From: Candidatus Prevotella avicola
GTDB taxonomy: Bacteria > Bacteroidota > Bacteroidia > Bacteroidales > Bacteroidaceae
Assembly (NCBI GenBank): GCA_019116685.1
Contig: DXBE01000021.1
Coordinates: forward strand, 15,457-79,456
Direction: 5' to 3'
DNA: 64,000 nucleotides
Position 1 is the stretch's first letter. Every line of letters starts with the position of its first letter. Both the position numbers and the translations under genes were made by a program. The notes below the pieces were generated by a model. The model was not told the origin of the DNA. It searched no databases and saw only the letters and a list, made by a program, of their open reading frames with translations. Below, one piece after another: positions 4,727-56,570 of this stretch.

Positions 4727-4915
4727 CGTTGTTTCGGTATATTAACTTGTTAGACCTCTTCGAGGCCCATGTTGGTTTTGTTGTTCGTATCTCCGCAAAG
4801 CGGTCAGCCTCTTCGAGGCTTCCCACACGCGGTAAAGCATCTCTGGACCTCTTCGAGGCCCTTTTGTCCCCCGTTTCTACACATATGGCGGTGTGTCTCT
4901 CTCCTCAGCAGCTTT

Positions 4916-5394
4916 TGTAGAGACGCATTCTTGCGTCTTCTCCAGCGAGTTTGTCATATCTCTCACCGCTTATGCGGCCTTTCTTGCTTGCTGAGACGCA
5001 AGAATGCGTCTCTACATTTACGGTGTGTGGCCCTCTTCTCGGCAGCTTTTGTAGAGACGTGGCGTGCCGCGTCTCCCTTGGCAAGCGTGTTCTCGCCCAT
5101 AGTGTGTAGAGACGCATTCTTGCGTCTCCTCTAGCGATTTTGCCTATCCCTCACCGCTTATGCAGCCTTTCCTGCTTGCTGAGACGCAAGAATGCGTCTC
5201 TACATTTACGGTGGTGCCATCCCTCCTCAGCAGCTTTTGTAGAGACGCGGCGCGCCACGTCTCCCTTTGCAAGCGTGTTCTCGCCCATGGTGTGTAGAGA
5301 CGCATTCTTGCGTCTTCTCCAGCGAGTTTGTCATATCTCTCACCGCTTATGCGGCCTTTCTTGCTTGCTGAGACGCAAGAATGCGTCTCTACAT
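4916..5394. repeat. Tandem array (about 2.5 units of ~189 bp) of MITE-like hairpin modules
   Basis: Unit starts (TGTAGAGACGCATTC) at 4916, 5105 and 5293. Each unit has a type-1 hairpin pair (TGTAGAGACGCATTCTTGCGTCT...CTGAGACGCAAGAATGCGTCTCTACA) followed by a type-2 hairpin (TGTAGAGACGYGGCGYGCCRCGTCTCC at 5050 and 5238). The repeated spurious ORF peptides in the ORF track mirror this. Confidence 0.85.
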
Positions 5395-5635
5395 ATTATA
5401 TATATTATAATGTACGTGCGCGCGCGAGCCTCGAAGAGGTTCAACCCTCAAAAGTTAGCGGTGGTATGATGAGACATTGCATAAGGTTAGGATGGCTTAA
5501 ACCTGTTAGGGGTTCTTCTTCGCAAAAATACGCGAAAAGAGTGATTCTGCCAAAATTTTTAAGGAAAAAGTGGATAATGATACCTCACGTAAAGTTTCCG
5601 CGCCGCTAGGTAAGGCATATTTAAAAGAAATTACA

Positions 5636-20876: not shown

Positions 20877-21053
20877 TAACGTGAGTTCGACGAATTCCAC
20901 TTTATGTGCACAACCCTGTTATTGCCAAACTGTAGAGACGCATTCTTGCGTCTCAGCCAGCTGCCAAGTCTTCGCGACAGGCGATTTTATTCGGCAATCT
21001 TGCTTGCTGAGACGCAAGAATGCGTCTCTACAAGTTTTCGTCGAACTCACGTT
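20877..21053 (+). mobile_element. MITE-like non-autonomous element, full copy
   Basis: 17-bp terminal inverted repeats AACGTGAGTTCGACGAA (20877-20893)/TTCGTCGAACTCACGTT (21037-21053). Inner hairpin arms TGTAGAGACGCATTCTTGCGTCTCAG and CTGAGACGCAAGAATGCGTCTCTACA. Reverse complement of 208-384. Confidence 0.75.
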
Positions 21054-21348
21054 AAAACTACGTTGGTTCATCAGACAAATGGCGTGATAACAAAGTAGAG
21101 AATATAAAAATAGCCACCTTTTCTGAAGCTTCGTCCCTTTGTTCCTGTGGATTTGCAACCACTAATGATTGCCAATCCGATGGAACAAGTCATGTTTGGC
21201 AAGCAAGAAAACGGGCAAAATAATGAAGATACCTTCATTAGCCAATGAAAGCGTCTTCATCGTCCCGAGAAGATAGCCTCACATGGCGATGAAGGTATCT
21301 TCATTTTCATGGGTATCAGCGGTAATGTCGGCAGGCACCTAGTACCAT

Positions 21349-30916: not shown

Positions 30917-31040
30917 CCTTGCTTGCCGAGACGCAAAAATGCGTCTCTACACGTTTCTGCTGACATTTTGTTATGTAATTTTGTCAAGAATGTATTAGCC
31001 GTCGCGTGTAGAGACGCATTTTTGCGTCTCAGCAAGCAAG
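30917..31040. repeat. Hairpin-repeat variant: 34-bp inverted arms with a ~55-bp spacer (AAAAA-loop variant)
   Basis: CTTGCTTGCCGAGACGCAAAAATGCGTCTCTACA (30917-30951) and TGTAGAGACGCATTTTTGCGTCTCAGCAAGCAAG (31007-31040). Confidence 0.8.
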
Positions 31041-31229: not shown

Positions 31230-32636
31230 ATGGCACGTATCCTGATAGTGGAAGACGACTTGACCTATGCCACCATGATGCAAGCATGGTTGCGCAAGCA
31301 CGGCTTTGAGGTGGAGAAGACGGGCGCGGTGATAGATGCCGCCAAGCTTTTCACCGCGGGCGGCCAGTTTGACTTGGTGTTGTCTGACCTCCGCTTGCCC
31401 GACCGCGACGGCCTTTTCTTGCTCCACTGGATGCGCAAGCAGGCCATCATGACCCCCTTTATCGTGATGACCAGCTACGCGGAGGTGCAAAACGCCGTGG
31501 AGGCCATGAAGTCTGGAGCCTGCGACTATATCGCCAAGCCCGTGGAAAAGGAAGCCTTGCTCCGCAAGATACAAGATGCCTTGCGGCCAAATTCTGCCGC
31601 GAAAGAGCCGGGGAACGCCGCCCCCTCTCCGCTTCCTGCCACTTCCGCCAAGCCTGCCCATCCCCATTCCGCTCCTCTTTCGTCCAAGGAGAAGGTAGCG
31701 GACGGAACTCCCAAATACATAGAAGGCAAAAGCGAGGCCTCCCGCCAACTCTATGATTACGTGAACCTGGTGGCTCCCACGCCCCTTTCCGTGCTCATCC
31801 TGGGAGCCAGCGGCACTGGCAAGGAGTATGTGGCCCATCGCATCCACGAGCAGAGCAGCCGGGCAGGCAAGCCTTTCTTCGCCCTCGACTGCGGCGCGAT
31901 TCCCAAGGACGTGGCCGCCTCAGAATTCTTCGGGTATACCAAGGGGGCGTTCACGGGTGCCATGGCCGACAAGAAAGGCGCCTTTGAACTGGCCAATGGC
32001 GGTACGCTCTTCCTCGACGAGGTGGGCAACCTGACTTATGACGTGCAAGTGCAACTGCTCAGGGCCTTGCAGGAAAGGAAAGTGAGACCGCTGGGCGGCG
32101 CGAAAGAGGTGGAGATAGATATCCGCCTGGTGTGCGCCACCAATGGCGACCTGGCCAAGCTGGTGGAGGAGGGCACTTTCCGTGAAGACCTTTACCATCG
32201 CATCAACGAATTCACCATCGTGATGCCCGCCTTGAAGGACAGGGACAGCGACCTCTTCCTTTTCGCCGACCTCTTCCTGAAACACGCCAACGAGGAACTG
32301 GGACGTAACGTGATAGGCTTCGACGACAAGGCTTCCGAGATGTTGGCCCGCTATGACTGGCCCGGCAACCTGAGGGAACTTAACAACGTGGTGAAGCGCG
32401 CCACGCTGTTGGTGAAGGGCGACTATATCGGCGTGGAGGAGTTGCGCCTCTCCATGCGACAACCAACCCACCAGGAGAACCTCGCCTTGCGTGACGAGAA
32501 CACGGAGCGGCAGCGCATTCTGGCCGCCCTGAAGTCCACGGGGGGCAATAAGAGCAAGACCGCCATTCTCTTGGGCATTGACCGCAAGACCCTTTACAAT
32601 AAATTGCAGAAATACGGGCTATCTACCGAGCGATAA
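31230..32636 (+). CDS. Sigma-54-dependent response regulator (NtrC/Fis family bacterial enhancer-binding protein)
   Basis: Receiver (ILIVEDD...DLVLSDLRLPDRDG), a Pro/Ala-rich linker, AAA+ sigma-54 interaction domain (VLILGASGTGKEYVA; GAFTGA; LFLDEVGNL; ELNNVVKRA) and a C-terminal Fis-type HTH (NKSKTAILLGIDRKTLYNKL). Confidence 0.9.
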   Translation: MARILIVEDDLTYATMMQAWLRKHGFEVEKTGAVIDAAKLFTAGGQFDLVLSDLRLPDRDGLFLLHWMRKQAIMTPFIVMTSYAEVQNAVEAMKSGACDYIAKPVEKEALLRKIQDALRPNSAAKEPGNAAPSPLPATSAKPAHPHSAPLSSKEKVADGTPKYIEGKSEASRQLYDYVNLVAPTPLSVLILGASGTGKEYVAHRIHEQSSRAGKPFFALDCGAIPKDVAASEFFGYTKGAFTGAMADKKGAFELANGGTLFLDEVGNLTYDVQVQLLRALQERKVRPLGGAKEVEIDIRLVCATNGDLAKLVEEGTFREDLYHRINEFTIVMPALKDRDSDLFLFADLFLKHANEELGRNVIGFDDKASEMLARYDWPGNLRELNNVVKRATLLVKGDYIGVEELRLSMRQPTHQENLALRDENTERQRILAALKSTGGNKSKTAILLGIDRKTLYNKLQKYGLSTER

Positions 32637-32661: not shown

Positions 32662-32805
32662 GTGAATCCGGCGAAAAGTTGTAGAGACGCATTCTTGCGT
32701 CTCAGCAAACCGCCAGGCCTTTGCGGGTGGCGATTTTATTCAGCGATTTTGCTTGCTGAGACGCAAGAATGCGTTCTCTACACTTTGGCAACGACAAGTT
32801 ATACA
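32662..32805 (-). mobile_element. MITE-like element, degenerate/truncated copy
   Basis: GTGAATCCGGCGAAAAGTTGTAGAGACGCATTCTTGCGTCTCAGCAA...CTGAGACGCAAGAATGCGTTCTCTACACTTTGGCAACGAC. The inner arms are conserved. The outer TIR is diverged on one side and absent on the other. Confidence 0.65.
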
Positions 32806-32852: not shown

Positions 32853-32962
32853 AAAACAAGTTATTTTCCTGATTAAAACAAGTTATTTCCGACACGAAAA
32901 CAAGTTGTTTTCCCAAGCAAAATAACTTATTTTCCCGAGCGAAACAAGTTGATTTCCCCAAG
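32853..32962. repeat. Tandem array, exact 22-bp period x 5 (core AAAACAAGTTRTTTTCC)
   Basis: Core starts at 32853, 32875, 32897, 32919 (inverted-type core AAAATAACTT) and 32941. Reverse-complement relative of the array at 44251-44362. Confidence 0.85.
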
Positions 32963-33020
32963 CCCCCAAAATAACGAGGCGGCAGAGGGGGTGTTTTCCA
33001 CAGGATTGGGGAACGGAATT

Positions 33021-33057
33021 GTGGAATAATTCCACACTTATTCCACAATTTCCACAC
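33021..33057. promoter_or_regulatory. Candidate enhancer (UAS) for the sigma-54 activator
   Basis: Palindrome GTGGAATAATTCCAC (33021-33035) plus two further TTCCACA half-sites (33041, 33050). These lie 70-105 nt upstream of the -24 box. Confidence 0.35.
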
Positions 33058-33124
33058 TTCCCCAATTCTCATAAAAATTTTCTTCTTCCTCAATATCAGG
33101 CAGTTAGCTCTTTCGTCACCCTTT

Positions 33125-33140
33125 TGGCACGCCCGTTGCA
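33125..33140 (+). promoter_or_regulatory. Sigma-54 (-24/-12) promoter
   Basis: TGGCACGCCCGTTGCA matches TGGCAC-N5-TTGCA. GG and GC are separated by 10 nt. It is intergenic and about 56 nt upstream of the ATG at 33197. Confidence 0.7.
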
Positions 33141-33196
33141 TAAATATAAGCGTCAACAAGACAACATATTTAATAACAATAAAAACTGAAAGAATT

Positions 33197-33379
33197 ATGA
33201 AGAAGTTATTTGTATTGGCTTTCGCCTCAATGGTATTGGTATCTGTAAGTAATGTATTCGCAGCTAAGGGTGTTGAGGGCACTCTGCCTGAGACTGTCGT
33301 TTCTGACTCTACTGTAACTACTTCAACTGACACCGTAGCTGCTCCTACTACTGCCCCCAGCGATAGCGTTGCTCAGTAA
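33197..33379 (+). CDS. Small secreted Thr/Ser/Val-rich peptide (60-aa precursor)
   Basis: MKKLFVLAFASMVLVSVSNVFA|AKG... has a Sec-type signal peptide. The mature ~37 aa contain DST, DTV and DSV. It has its own sigma-54 promoter upstream and a strong terminator downstream. No homolog recognised. Confidence 0.55.
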   Translation: MKKLFVLAFASMVLVSVSNVFAAKGVEGTLPETVVSDSTVTTSTDTVAAPTTAPSDSVAQ

Positions 33380-33428
33380 GGGACATGTATAGTGGCATTT
33401 CCAAGAGAGGAATGTGAATGAGAGAAAG

Positions 33429-33470
33429 TAGACCCGCCCGGGCAATTGCCCGTGGCGGGTCTCATTGTTT
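33429..33470 (+). terminator. Rho-independent terminator after the small peptide gene
   Basis: TAGACCCGCC (33429-33438), inner palindrome CGGGCAATTGCCCG, then GGCGGGTCT (33454-33462) followed by CATTGTTTAT. Confidence 0.7.
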
Positions 33471-33559: not shown

Positions 33560-33567
33560 TATGTTTG
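33560..33567 (+). promoter_or_regulatory. Candidate -7 promoter box (TAnnTTTG) for the hybrid kinase gene
   Basis: TATGTTTG lies about 32 nt upstream of the ATG at 33599. This supports the internal start MKLSVSAKV. Confidence 0.4.
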
Positions 33568-33598
33568 CAGACGGCAAACAACGTTTTTTCCCACCACG

Positions 33599-36088
33599 AT
33601 GAAACTCAGTGTCTCCGCAAAAGTCACCATTGGCTATCTCTTTTTCTTGCTGGTGCTCGCGCTCTGCATCTGGTTGGTGTATGACAACATACGCACCTCC
33701 CACTGGCTAGACACCGCCGAGGAACTGGCCGCCAACCGCCGGGATGTCACCGACAGCCTGGTCTACAGCCTCCTGGACGCCAACAACCGGGAACGCGCCA
33801 TTTACCTGGGCTCTGCCGAGGAGTGGGACGCGTATGAGCAAGCCGTGGAAAGAACCCAGGACTTGGCGGAAAGACTGAAGCGTTCCATCAGCGACACCAC
33901 GACCTACCAAAAGATTGACTCCCTGCGCTGGCTGCTTGACCAGAAACTGGACAACACCCTGAGCGTGATGACCCTCATGGCCAACGGAAGCTCGGACAGC
34001 TACGTGCAGCGCAAGGTGGAACAGCTGCGGGAACGCAGGGACTCCGTGGTGGTGAGACCCAAGAGCGTGGAGACCAAGCAAGACAGTACGGTGGTGGTGG
34101 AAGTGGTGAAGACCCGCAAAGGTTTCTTCAGGCGACTGGCCGACGCTTTCCGCAAGCCGCGCACCGACACGGTGAAGGTGACCAAGCACGAGGGAGCGCA
34201 AGAGACTGACTCCGTCACCCACAACATCGACGTGAGTGACAGCGTGGCCACGGTGCTCTCGCAAATACAGGAAAGAGAGGAGGAAGCGAGAGAGCGGAGA
34301 GTGGAGAAGATACGCTCCCGGGAGGAGCGGCAACAGCGAGTGGGCGTGGAACTGACCCGTCGCACCGCCCAACTGCTGGAGGAAATAAGAGACAGCGAAC
34401 GAAGGGAGCTAAGGGATGCCATCGGCGAGACGGCCGCCGCCCGTTATGGCGTGATGCGGCAGATGGGGCTCCTGGGGGGCATCGCCGTGCTTTCCTCACT
34501 GGTATTGCTCTATCTCGTGGGGCGCGACGTGAGACAAAGCAAGCGATATAGTGAACACTTGGAGGAAGCCAAGGCCGACACCGAGCGGCTGATGGCCCAA
34601 AGAGAGAGGCTGCTCTTGACCATCACCCACGACATCAAGGCGCCAGCCGCCTCTATCTCAGGCTTCATAGAATTGTTGCGGGAACACGTAAAAGGCCAGA
34701 AAGCCGCTTCCTATTTGCGCAATATCCAGAATTCCGCCACTCATTTATTGCAGCTCGTCAGGGCGTTGTTGGACTATCACCGACTGGAGAGCGGCAGCGT
34801 GGAGGTGCAGGTAGCCTCTTTCTCCCCGTCCCGATTGCTGGAAAGTTGCGTGGAGGAGATGCGCCCCATGGCGCGGGAACGGGACTTGCGACTGACCTGT
34901 GATACCCAGGGGTGCCCCCAGAAGTTGTTCCTGGGCGACGCTTTCCGCATGCGGCAAATCGTGGACAACCTGCTCAACAACGCTTTGAAATATACCTCGG
35001 AGGGTGGCGTGAGCGTGAAAGGCAATGTGGGGAATGGCTATTTCCACATAGAGGTGGCCGATACTGGCAGGGGCATGAGCCCGGAAGAAAGCCGCAAGGT
35101 GTTCCAAGCCTTCACCCGCCTGGCCAATGCCCAAGGCGAGGAGGGCGTGGGATTGGGACTGTCCATCACCAAGGAATTGACGCAGTTGCTCAATGGCACC
35201 ATCACCCTTTCTTCCCAAAAGGGCAAGGGAACCACTTTCTATGTCACTTTGCCCGTGAAGCCCGCTCCCGCTGACGCTGAAACGGAGCGGGAGGAGATGG
35301 CTATCGCGTCCGACAGGCAGCCCATCGTCATTCCTTCCCAAGAAAGAAAAGGCAAGGAGAAAACAATCCACAAGGTGATGATACTGGATGATGACGGACT
35401 TCAGTTGCGGCTTACCGCCGAGTTGCTGCGCAGGCTCTCGGGCGACAAATGGCGGCTGGAGGCATTTCAGCGAGTGGCCGAGGCCGTGGAGTGGGCGAGG
35501 GCGGAACACCCCGACTTGATATGTATCGACATCGAGATGCCAGAGATGAACGGCATGGAGGTGCTCCACCGCTATCCCGAACTGAAGCAAGCCACTTGCG
35601 TGGCCATGACGGCACATGATCCCAGCATCGCGCCCAGCTTGCGTTTGTCTGGTTTTGATGCCTGTCTGTTTAAACCCATAGACGGAGCGCAGTTGGCCCA
35701 GGTATTGGCGCCCTTTATCGGCGATGCGCCCGTAGAGGAAAGCGCCGAGCCCCAGGCGGGAAACCTGGATGCTCTCACCGCTTACGCCGATGGCGACAAG
35801 GAAGCGGAGCGAGAGATATTGGAGAGTTTCAGACAGGAACTCGAATCCTATCTCAGCCAGTTAGCCGAAGCTTTGAAGACAGATTCCCGCGAGCCTGTTT
35901 CCAAAGTGGCGCACAAATCGTTGCCCACGTTCCATGTGATACAGTCACCCGTAGAGGAAACACTAAAAACCCTATCCCCAGAGGAGATAGGGAAACTGGA
36001 CAACGCCGCCATCGAAGGACACGTTCTTGAGGTGATGGAGGAGATGAGGCGGGTGCTCCAGGCGGTAAAAGAAAGGTTGGGCGATTAG
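33599..36088 (+). CDS. Hybrid sensor histidine kinase/response regulator with a C-terminal HPt domain
   Basis: The ORF opens at 33446. The likely start is 33599 (MKLSVSAKVTIGYLFFLLVLALCIWLVY, TM1). A ~270-aa charged coiled-coil-like region is followed by TM2 (GLLGGIAVLSSLVLLYLVG). HisKA (ITHDIKAPAASI), HATPase (GVGLGLSITKEL), receiver (VMILDDD...DLICIDIEMPEMNG) and an HPt-like tail (AHKSLPTFHVIQ). Confidence 0.9.
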   Translation: MKLSVSAKVTIGYLFFLLVLALCIWLVYDNIRTSHWLDTAEELAANRRDVTDSLVYSLLDANNRERAIYLGSAEEWDAYEQAVERTQDLAERLKRSISDTTTYQKIDSLRWLLDQKLDNTLSVMTLMANGSSDSYVQRKVEQLRERRDSVVVRPKSVETKQDSTVVVEVVKTRKGFFRRLADAFRKPRTDTVKVTKHEGAQETDSVTHNIDVSDSVATVLSQIQEREEEARERRVEKIRSREERQQRVGVELTRRTAQLLEEIRDSERRELRDAIGETAAARYGVMRQMGLLGGIAVLSSLVLLYLVGRDVRQSKRYSEHLEEAKADTERLMAQRERLLLTITHDIKAPAASISGFIELLREHVKGQKAASYLRNIQNSATHLLQLVRALLDYHRLESGSVEVQVASFSPSRLLESCVEEMRPMARERDLRLTCDTQGCPQKLFLGDAFRMRQIVDNLLNNALKYTSEGGVSVKGNVGNGYFHIEVADTGRGMSPEESRKVFQAFTRLANAQGEEGVGLGLSITKELTQLLNGTITLSSQKGKGTTFYVTLPVKPAPADAETEREEMAIASDRQPIVIPSQERKGKEKTIHKVMILDDDGLQLRLTAELLRRLSGDKWRLEAFQRVAEAVEWARAEHPDLICIDIEMPEMNGMEVLHRYPELKQATCVAMTAHDPSIAPSLRLSGFDACLFKPIDGAQLAQVLAPFIGDAPVEESAEPQAGNLDALTAYADGDKEAEREILESFRQELESYLSQLAEALKTDSREPVSKVAHKSLPTFHVIQSPVEETLKTLSPEEIGKLDNAAIEGHVLEVMEEMRRVLQAVKERLGD

Positions 36089-44217: not shown

Positions 44218-44250
44218 TTTTAAATATACGTTGTACGCAAGTGCCTTTTG

Positions 44251-44362
44251 AATCTAAGTTGTTTCGCGCAACAAAATAACTTGTTTTGCTCATGAAAATA
44301 ACTTGTTTTGCCGACCAAAATAAGTTGAATTGCCAGGCGAAATAACTTGTTTTCCAAAAGCG
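44251..44362. repeat. Tandem array, exact 22-bp period x 5 (core AAAATAACTTGTTTTGC)
   Basis: Core starts at 44251, 44273, 44295, 44317 and 44339. Reverse-complement relative of the array at 32853-32962. Confidence 0.85.
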
Positions 44363-55970: not shown

Positions 55971-56570
55971 TTACAGATAGAAAATGGCCTCGTTGCCCAT
56001 GTTGAAAAGCAGGTCTAGGATAGAGAGATTGGGCAGGAAGCCCAGTTTCCTTTCATAGACCTGATAGTAACGGCGAGGCATGAAACCAGGGTCTTCCGCG
56101 GGATGTTTGGGTTGGATGGCGTTCCTGAAATCGTTGTCCGCCTCGGGCAAGTAGTCTTCCGTGGGAGCCAGGAGCGGATGGATGTCAAGCAACTGGCACA
56201 TCGTTTGCGCGATGTCCCAGTTATAGTCGAAAAGGTATTTCCATTTCCGCTCAAAGAAAGGCCTGATGTCATCGGCGTAGAACTCGAAGAAAGGGCTTTC
56301 TCCGTAAGCGGAACAAAGGGCGTTCCAGTGCAAGTGTCTCCAGTTTCCGTGGTCAGATATCTGGATGTCTCTTATGAGTCGTGGGCCTCGTTCAATAGGC
56401 AGGGTAAGTGATTGCGGCCCATTGGTGGTGACGATGACACAGCGATTGCGATAGGTTTGCTTTTGGAAGCTCTCCATGCGTTCTATGCGGCATTCGTCGT
56501 GCCGATAGAGTTTCTGGTACCACTGGATAGGGCCGAAGTAGGTGGTGGATAGTAGCGCTGTGGTGCTCAT
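55971..56570 (-). CDS. WbqC-family protein
   Basis: 199 aa. N-terminus LLSTTYFGPIQWYQKL and overall pattern are typical of WbqC-like proteins. It sits in the dapB-lepB-wbqC arrangement that I recall as typical of Bacteroidales. Confidence 0.75.
   Translation of the reverse strand: MSTTALLSTTYFGPIQWYQKLYRHDECRIERMESFQKQTYRNRCVIVTTNGPQSLTLPIERGPRLIRDIQISDHGNWRHLHWNALCSAYGESPFFEFYADDIRPFFERKWKYLFDYNWDIAQTMCQLLDIHPLLAPTEDYLPEADNDFRNAIQPKHPAEDPGFMPRRYYQVYERKLGFLPNLSILDLLFNMGNEAIFYL

Follow-up and report, generated by a model that had tools for sequence, protein, structure and literature searches.

The locus and its sigma-54 promoter

The DNA analysed here (below, the window) is a stretch of 64,000 nucleotides from Candidatus Prevotella avicola, and the element in question is a 60-codon gene for a predicted exported peptide, situated between the genes of a sigma-54 activator and of a hybrid sensor histidine kinase and preceded by a sigma-54 promoter with an upstream enhancer. 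An earlier note, made from the sequence alone, had singled out this promoter together with the small open reading frame (ORF) behind it, and had proposed that the ORF encodes a secreted peptide rich in O-glycosylation sequons and controlled by the adjacent enhancer-binding protein. The features of the locus are as follows.

31230-32636, plus strand: gene of an NtrC-type response regulator and sigma-54 activator with the domain order REC-AAA+-HTH_8, recognised by Pfam and by its motifs
32996-33064, plus strand: predicted upstream activating sequence made of TTCCACA/TGTGGAA half-sites, from the repeat count in the window and from positional conservation
33094-33106, plus strand: IHF-like element of the TGATWATCA type, TATCAGGCAGTTA, matching the IHF consensus WATCARNNNNTTR and placed between enhancer and promoter
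33125-33140, plus strand: sigma-54 promoter TGGCAC-N5-TTGCA (TGGCACGCCCGTTGCA), an exact match, with the -24 GG at 33126-7 and the -12 GC at 33138-9
33197-33379, plus strand: 60-codon signal-peptide gene, ATG at 33197 and stop codon at 33377-33379, recognised by the ratio of nonsynonymous to synonymous substitution rates (dN/dS), by its family and by sequon density
33197-33262, plus strand: predicted signal peptide MKKLFVLAFASMVLVSVSNVFA, with an MKK n-region, a 15-residue hydrophobic core and a V-F-A cleavage motif
33263-33376, plus strand: predicted mature peptide of 38 amino acids, Cys-free and acidic by translation
33305-33313, 33329-33337 and 33362-33370, plus strand: sequons DST (D37), DTV (D45) and DSV (D56), of the form D-[ST]-[AILVMT], in the mature peptide
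33430-33462, plus strand: terminator-like imperfect hairpin with a 14-bp stem, -33.1 kcal/mol, z -5.1 against shuffles
33599-36088, plus strand: gene of a hybrid sensor histidine kinase with two transmembrane segments (TM1-periplasmic-TM2-HisKA-HATPase-REC) and a weak HPt-like C-terminus, from Pfam and synteny
34034-34261, plus strand: insert in the kinase sensor (residues 146-221) with the sequons D148, D162, D190, D204 and D214 and the invariant GFFRRLADAF, from the AlphaFold model and the alignment

The promoter is what the earlier note had taken it for: the match to the sigma-54 core is complete, with GG and GC 10 nucleotides apart, and transcription is predicted to start near 33150. Exact copies of TGGCAC-N5-TTGC number two in the window against 0.21 expected; the other one (56194-56208) runs antisense within the ORF 55971-56570, has no enhancer-like repeats close by and, being antisense within an ORF, was set aside as a probable product of chance. 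The note had proposed conservation of the promoter at orthologous loci as a check, and in our alignment of 35 related loci (the window, 31 loci from genomes and three from metagenomes) the pattern TTTGGCAC-N5-TTG[CT] is present 50-105 nucleotides 5' of the start codon in all 35, one of them having TTGA as its -12 box. The -24 box reads TGGCAC in 33 loci and TGGCAT in two, and the -12 box TTGC in 20, TTGT in 14 and TTGA in one. That the genus uses sigma-54 follows from the detection of the sigma-54 protein in the proteome of Prevotella intermedia. Several orthologous promoters have in effect a duplicated -24 box, that is, an additional TTGGCAC half-motif 8-14 nucleotides 5' of the true one (about 7545-7561 in L010, 7455-7468 in L014 and L016, and 6325-6339 in L043; loci of the comparison are designated by L and a number).

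The palindrome GTGGAATAATTCCAC (33021-33035) and two further TTCCACA half-sites, also pointed out in the note, belong to a larger array. Half-sites are situated at 32996, 33020 (minus strand), 33030, 33041 and 33050, with degenerate copies at 33007 and 33058; those outside the palindrome occupy 32996-33002, 33041-33047 and 33050-33056, and five of the 15 copies of TTCCACA in the window are clustered within 61 nucleotides (32996-33056). Orthologous half-sites read TTCC[AC]CA/TGTGGAA, and their offsets from the T of TGGCAC are nearly invariant in about 30 species (-119, -106, -96, -85, -76 and -68). The array spans -68 to -129 relative to the promoter, a conserved position at enhancer distance, where the activator is predicted to bind. 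As to the element at 33094-33106, a strict match to the IHF consensus was found in 13 of the 35 loci, the window included, always at -31 or -43 (shuffled sequences, 1.1%), and a TGAT[TA]ATCA core occupies the equivalent place in most of the loci without a strict match; a protein of the IHF/HU type probably binds there.

In some genomes the peptide gene is not linked to the activator gene (after a kup gene in L001 and L002, after a lacI-type gene in Prevotella sp. CAG:891), and enhancer, bend element and promoter move along with it, for instance in L001 and L085. Such joint movement of the cis elements with the unlinked gene speaks strongly, on comparative grounds, for a sigma-54 unit that depends on the activator.

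Two insertions, both outside the conserved unit, separate the activator gene of the window from the enhancer. The first is a REP-like multi-copy palindromic element (TTGTAGAGACGCATTCTTGCGTCTCAGCAA..., 32675-32790; also at 225-340, 4900-5400, 20920-21056 and 30920-31040), which fills several intergenic regions and flanks the activator gene on both sides. The second is an array of five tandem copies (32853-32962) of a partly palindromic 22-bp unit, AAAACAAGTTATTTTCC, which is met again at 44250-44355 (four or five units in an unrelated intergenic region), at 435-451, and at 4528-4632 of L001; matches with at most three mismatches number 11 against 0.1 expected. We considered this array as an additional enhancer and rejected the idea, because the array is missing at orthologous loci in other species and is found elsewhere in the window too, as an inserted repeat would be.

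The hairpin at 33430-33462 (about -33 kcal/mol) is consistent with the self-contained transcription unit that the note had described, and in most orthologues a hairpin with a T-run is located 25-75 nucleotides past the stop codon. Where the gene order is kinase-activator-peptide, the peptide ORF is the last gene. A second terminator-like hairpin of the window, with a T6 run (33562-33589), ends 10 nucleotides ahead of the kinase start codon and is overlapped by a Bacteroidetes-type -7 promoter motif, TAtgTTTG (33560-33567).

The small gene and its family

The start codon at 33197, the length of 60 codons and the translation agree with the earlier reading, and the test of selection suggested there gave a clear result. 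Compared with a homologue of 83% identity, the ORF has 18 synonymous and 10 nonsynonymous differences; dN/dS is 0.14-0.2 (0.14 from dS 0.55 and dN 0.08), with similar ratios for signal peptide and mature part, which means purifying selection.

Direct search with the peptide yielded three homologues, all of them metagenomic (95, 95 and 83% identity), and when 185,579 species-representative genomes were scanned with a peptide pattern, no close homologue of the 60-residue peptide appeared. The family was reached via the activator instead: a search with the latter produced about 40 Bacteroidales loci (52-74% identity), and in 33 of them a small ORF is the next gene. These ORFs, from Prevotella/Segatella (Prevotellaceae), Alloprevotella, Prevotellamassilia and Muribaculaceae, encode proteins of 53-220 amino acids with a signal peptide of the MKK-hydrophobic-(S/N)xFA type and a low-complexity tail. 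A profile built from 19 family members retrieved at least 139 clusters (90% identity) that keep the signal peptide, have no Pfam domain and are labelled, if at all, just as 'secreted protein'. Throughout these clusters, from more than 30 species, the frame is open and the signal-peptide residues are conserved, though the DNA has diverged.

Considering the dN/dS of 0.14 and at least 139 relatives with a retained signal peptide, the comparative evidence tells us that the 60-codon ORF is a real gene. It is a member of a widespread unnamed family and no orphan. The earlier note recognised no family, and indeed Pfam and NCBIfam contain none for the window peptide or for five longer family members; as an orphan, however, the peptide did not stand. 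Weak matches to ExtJ, PG1828 and PDZ are far under the cut-offs and arise from the signal peptide or the repeats; in the case of the PG1828 family lipoprotein (NF050142), one family member scored 17 bits against a cut-off of 50, and the window peptide has no lipobox Cys.

Two metagenome-assembled genomes labelled Bacteroides sp. (L028 and L047, 7330-7850) possess the TTCCACA enhancer and a TTGGCAC-N5-TTGT promoter with no signal-peptide ORF behind them. The region found in its place is about 250 nucleotides long and A-rich, with AAACGA/CTAAAC repeats, a 6-codon ORF (MKMPMC) and a terminator consisting of a hairpin and a T8 run; its final 110 nucleotides are identical in the two genomes. It may represent a sigma-54-dependent small RNA in place of the peptide gene, and Rfam gave no match either in this variant or in the window.

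These loci bring up the question of whether the ORF of the window is itself incidental, the promoter yielding a regulatory RNA or driving the kinase gene by read-through. The conserved transcript region without a signal-peptide ORF in L028 and L047, as well as the weak U-tract of the window's terminator, would agree with that. Against it stand the dN/dS value, the frame and signal peptide kept in the above clusters, the strong terminators ahead of the kinase gene in orthologues, the upstream position of the kinase gene in half of the loci and the lack of an Rfam match, and we regard such an explanation as highly improbable.

Partner genes and the shared sequon

The activator whose adjacency the earlier note had emphasised is a complete enhancer-binding protein. 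Its Pfam matches are Sigma54_activat (1.3e-64), Response_reg (3.3e-23) and HTH_8 (7.8e-15), and it has the Walker A motif GASGTGKE, the GAFTGA loop and the Walker B motif LFLDEVG, as expected of a cognate regulator. Its orthologues (best match in Xylanibacter rarus) adjoin the peptide gene in most loci, which makes it the likely regulator of the latter. What had not been noticed is the third member of the module, the downstream hybrid kinase, whose sensor domain, as its sequence reveals, bears the same motif as the peptide. Among the module loci compared, the kinase gene always adjoins that of the activator; Prevotella/Segatella loci share the order of the window, activator-peptide-kinase, and those of Alloprevotella, Prevotellamassilia and Muribaculaceae read kinase-activator-peptide. 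When the flanks of about 40 loci were compared all against all, activator, peptide and kinase were left as the sole conserved genes of the neighbourhood. Our literature searches revealed no paper describing such a module. A sigma-54-dependent regulator listed in the proteome supplement of P. intermedia was tried as an orthologue; it is located beside lptE/secG-type genes and is a different regulator.

In one Prevotella subclade (L021, L023, 240-5916 of L024 and 1-12255 of L087/L088) the module is found inside a glycan-biosynthesis cluster, with genes for LicD, an epimerase, an IspD-like cytidylyltransferase, GT2, a Wzx flippase and an acetyltransferase upstream and for GT2 and GT4 downstream. 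The cluster does not have the metG-wzx...GT-GT layout of the known LFG (O-glycosylation) locus. Loci where the activator gene occurs without the enhancer-promoter-peptide unit were also encountered (7392-7560 of L005, 7380-8100 of L006, and L007); they are those of the activator's closest relatives.

The order regulator-peptide-kinase is reminiscent of Gram-positive pheromone cassettes, and one may ask whether the adjacent kinase has the exported peptide or some fragment of it as its ligand, in an autoinducing quorum-sensing loop. The differences in peptide sequence among species and the status of the peptide as the sole local target would suit this possibility. However, the peptide has a Sec signal peptide and not a double-glycine leader or AgrB-type processing; the module comprises no dedicated exporter or protease; repeat expansion to 220 amino acids is unlike pheromones; no route across the outer membrane is obvious, and conservation extends to a generic modification motif rather than to any specific ligand sequence. 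The Sec-type signal, the expanded repeats, the absence of partner genes and the dN/dS value thus count against both a pheromone and an incidental ORF, and a pheromone seems to us quite improbable. Neither is there support for the antimicrobial peptide that the note had listed among its candidates: the mature part is anionic (net charge about -4) and Cys-free, and no genes for immunity, export or modification accompany it, for which reasons the antimicrobial reading, along with that of a ribosomally synthesised and post-translationally modified peptide (RiPP), was rejected.

The signal peptide was assigned by reading of the sequence, and its traits (MKK, hydrophobic core, cleavage site of the V-F-A type) are conserved across the family, as would be expected of a non-cytoplasmic product. 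Export, as claimed by the note, is therefore well supported; since nothing points to transit through the outer membrane, a periplasmic location is more likely than secretion proper.

The three O-glycosylation sequons reported in the note are all present, and their enrichment turned out to be the main conserved property of the family. The window peptide contains three against 0.6 expected from its composition, and family proteins contain 2-11 against 0.3-1.3. Expressed per 100 amino acids, the density is 7.05 in the family (n = 117), 7.9 in the mature peptide of the window and 0.22 in the window's large ORFs, the others of which, exported ones included, have 0-1. Past the signal peptide, the only feature conserved in the family is the iterated motif x-D-T/S-V/T-(V/A)-(P). 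When the first residue of X-[ST]-[AILVMT] was varied, D proved to be enriched 8.65-fold and G 4.25-fold, E was near expectation (1.3) and N depleted (0.12).

The Bacteroidota sequon D-(S/T)-(A/I/L/V/M/T) was validated in P. intermedia, at 443 sites carrying a 1531-Da glycan (PMC10897501), and a review states that the occupancy of non-cytoplasmic sequons is nearly complete and that sequons introduced by engineering are glycosylated too (PMC12871550). Given a sequon validated in Prevotella and nearly always occupied in exported proteins, export and triple O-glycosylation of the 38-residue mature peptide are likely.

The sensor domain of the kinase provides the second half of the argument. Between its transmembrane segments (residues 9-27 and 285-303) lies a periplasmic domain of about 257 amino acids with nine sequons, while about 1.2 would be expected, and the cytoplasmic part (526 amino acids) has none; no other stretch of 257 amino acids in the window's large ORFs has more than four. 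Exhaustive search for this domain gave 158 representatives with mutual identity below 50%, of which 89 full-length kinases were used for density estimates. Their periplasmic domains contain a median of seven sequons (range 3-10), corresponding to 2.50 per 100 amino acids in the periplasmic and 0.24 in the cytoplasmic parts, with 0.96 expected. In an alignment of 91 representatives, the sequons at window residues 107, 148, 190, 204 and 214 are retained in 95, 78, 88, 87 and 73%, respectively, and the mean column majority is only 0.40. The enrichment requires D at the first position (6.7-fold; E 0.99, N 1.4) and L, V, I, T, A or M at the third, where charged and polar residues are depleted, and this profile equals the published glycosylation specificity exactly.

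Most of the conserved sequons are held by the insert 146-221. In the AlphaFold model the sensor is a bundle of long helices, and the insert, with helices on both sides, has a predicted local distance difference test score (pLDDT) of about 30; it is probably flexible. Pfam has no match for the periplasmic domain, and a sequon-rich sensor is a property of this kinase family unmentioned in the databases and literature that we searched.

Two further explanations have to be weighed at this point. According to the first, the module would sense and regulate Bacteroidota O-glycosylation and would be the first system described to do so. The kinase would read the glycan occupancy of its own five conserved periplasmic sequons, most of them in the flexible insert, or else the supply of lipid-linked donor, and the sole sigma-54 output, a peptide of sequons only, would act as a decoy or sink, competing for the O-oligosaccharyltransferase or buffering the pool of lipid-linked glycan, which would free undecaprenyl phosphate and keep envelope glycosylation balanced. 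Length (53-220 amino acids) and sequon number (2-11) vary freely in the peptide family, the sequons being all that is conserved past the signal peptide, and such variation fits a role for which acceptor sites alone are needed. The sensor enrichment has precisely the specificity of the glycosylation motif; the subclade module described above lies among genes for a Wzx flippase, GT2, GT4, LicD and an epimerase; and a review of Bacteroidota O-glycosylation describes no regulator. According to a 2025 review, little is known of what the phylum-wide modification does, and neither its transferase nor its ligase has been identified. On the other side, the proposal is purely inferential, the glycan-cluster linkage is confined to one clade and has a layout unlike that of the known LFG locus, a dN/dS of 0.14 across the mature peptide and the conserved V/A-P suggest constraint beyond that of a pure sink, and an excess of donor would be hard for a kinase to report through its own glycosylation. 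We hold this explanation, input and output taken together, to be tentative and on the whole unlikely.

The second explanation is protective. Some envelope or osmotic cue, unrelated to glycosylation, would induce a heavily glycosylated, mucin-like disordered polypeptide that would keep the periplasm or outer-membrane vesicles hydrated, buffered or shielded, and the sequons of the kinase would merely stabilise the kinase itself. The acidic low-complexity repeats, rich in Thr, Pro and Asp and in sequons, are akin to mucin-like domains; tight on/off control by sigma-54, which in Bacteroidota drives chaperone genes (PMC12316311), is typical of stress genes, and glycans are thought to stabilise the envelope proteins of the phylum. 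However, it leaves unexplained why, among all envelope proteins, this kinase family should have five conserved sequons, most of them in a single flexible insert; 38 residues with three glycans are little material unless expression is very high; and no osmotic or stress genes are linked to the module in the flanks of the approximately 40 loci. We are doubtful about it, and consider it a poor candidate for both the peptide and the kinase.

Proposed mechanism and comparison with known systems

The explanation that we prefer is that a self-contained module has one adjacent, conserved output, the ORF, and that the product of the latter is an accessory or feedback glycopeptide of its own two-component system; we give it a probability of about 0.5. 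The events could be as follows. The periplasmic sensor of the kinase would cause phosphorylation of the activator's receiver, possibly via the REC and HPt-like domains of the kinase, and oligomers of the activator would bind the TTCCACA array 70-130 bp upstream, the TGATWATCA/IHF-like element helping the DNA to loop between enhancer and promoter. The AAA+ ring with its GAFTGA loops would then open the complex of sigma-54 holoenzyme at TGGCAC-N5-TTGCA, giving rise to a monocistronic mRNA of about 310 nucleotides that would begin near 33150 and end at the hairpin (33430-33462). The 60-residue precursor would leave the cytoplasm by the Sec pathway and be cleaved behind VFA22 by signal peptidase I, so that an acidic, Cys-free and probably disordered peptide of 38 residues would be released into the periplasm, where Bacteroidota's general system for O-glycosylation would modify S38, T46 and S57 (in DST, DTV and DSV). 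The glycopeptide would finally share its periplasmic target, a partner molecule or a process, with the sensor loop. This functional tie is proposed because the sequon of the peptide recurs at five strongly conserved places in the periplasmic domain of the kinase.

The steps of this scheme differ in their firmness. The alignments and counts establish a promoter and an enhancer, an ORF under selection, synteny of the three genes and enrichment of the motif. From established knowledge we infer the dependence on sigma-54 and the activator, Sec export, the cleavage site and glycosylation; regulation, export and probable glycosylation are well supported in this way. The feedback function is put forward as a hypothesis, by analogy.

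Several observations weigh against the scheme. For feedback itself, the shared motif and the analogy are all that can be adduced. The activators of Xylanibacter rarus and Prevotella sp. CAG:1185, which are its nearest relatives (73-74% identity), are encoded with no peptide gene and no kinase gene beside them, which implies that in that lineage the module has been split or partly lost. The -12 box is TTGT, not TTGC, in 14 of the 35 loci, and no rpoN gene is visible within the window. The 3' tail of the window hairpin, CATTGTTTAT, is T-poor, at best moderately T-rich, and makes no good U-tract, so that some read-through into the kinase gene is possible; the non-coding region that follows the promoter in two metagenome-assembled genomes makes a role at the RNA level possible at some loci. 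The family mostly has DTV, whereas P. intermedia prefers DS(L/I/V), and the conserved V/A at +3 and P at +4 suggest that the motif has a role beyond glycan acceptance. Finally, the model of the sensor domain is of low confidence (pLDDT 59.5), and the matches that a Foldseek comparison of it with PDB produced were merely those of generic long helices, with E > 0.03 throughout.

Of the sigma-54 regulons of gut Bacteroidota, as of their small proteins, little has been charted. The locus offers a clean unit of enhancer, promoter and target that is kept across Prevotellaceae and Muribaculaceae and could be used directly as a reporter or inducible part. A circuit centred on the sequon would also be a genetic handle on envelope glycosylation, that is, on its purpose, on whether it is monitored and on the enzyme that recognises the motif, and the peptide could serve as a minimal natural substrate in biochemical assays.

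The regulatory logic of the module is that of known sigma-54 two-component systems, while for the module itself we found no curated family or paper. It does not belong with Gram-positive pheromone cassettes: besides the Sec signal and the absence of processing and export genes, the kinase has two transmembrane segments and a large periplasmic domain. Nor does the peptide resemble a RiPP or bacteriocin precursor, with only kinase and regulator as conserved neighbours, no Cys and a net charge of about -4. With the substrates of Bacteroidota O-glycosylation it shares the Sec signal peptide and canonical sequons; it differs from them in that its family consists essentially of sequons (7 per 100 amino acids) and in its dedicated sigma-54 control.

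The LuxQ/LuxU/LuxO-Qrr system of Vibrio is similar in having a hybrid kinase, receiver and HPt steps, an NtrC-type activator and very short monocistronic targets; the LuxO and LuxQ models match partially, and the target in L028/L047 appears to be non-coding. Unlike the Qrr RNAs, the target codes for an exported protein in most species, no Qrr-like RNA was matched, and the sensor domains are unrelated.

The closest parallels in circuit logic are CpxP and ZraP. The former is a small periplasmic protein encoded beside its own two-component system, CpxAR, induced by it and acting on the sensor, but it is sigma-70 dependent and helical, with LTXXQ motifs, and the window peptide has no such motif or fold. 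Membership in the ZraP/CpxP/Spy family was rejected in view of the low-complexity sequence and the lack of a match to the LTXXQ/helical family; it is the circuit logic alone that is similar. ZraP is a sigma-54-dependent small periplasmic protein, which is encoded next to ZraSR and feeds back on the kinase (PMC4987338). It is, in contrast to our low-complexity sequon repeat without a Pfam match, a folded zinc-binding helical chaperone and divergently transcribed; the window peptide has no metal-binding motif, the window kinase is a hybrid with REC and a sequon-rich sensor, and feedback is suggested by analogy only. What the two systems have in common is a two-component system with a sigma-54 enhancer-binding regulator and the adjacent gene of a sigma-54-dependent small periplasmic protein. 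ZraR is, though below the cut-off, among the best NCBIfam matches of the window activator, and the adjacency and regulator-specific enhancer of a ZraP/CpxP-type arrangement can be recognised in the sequence of the peptide locus.

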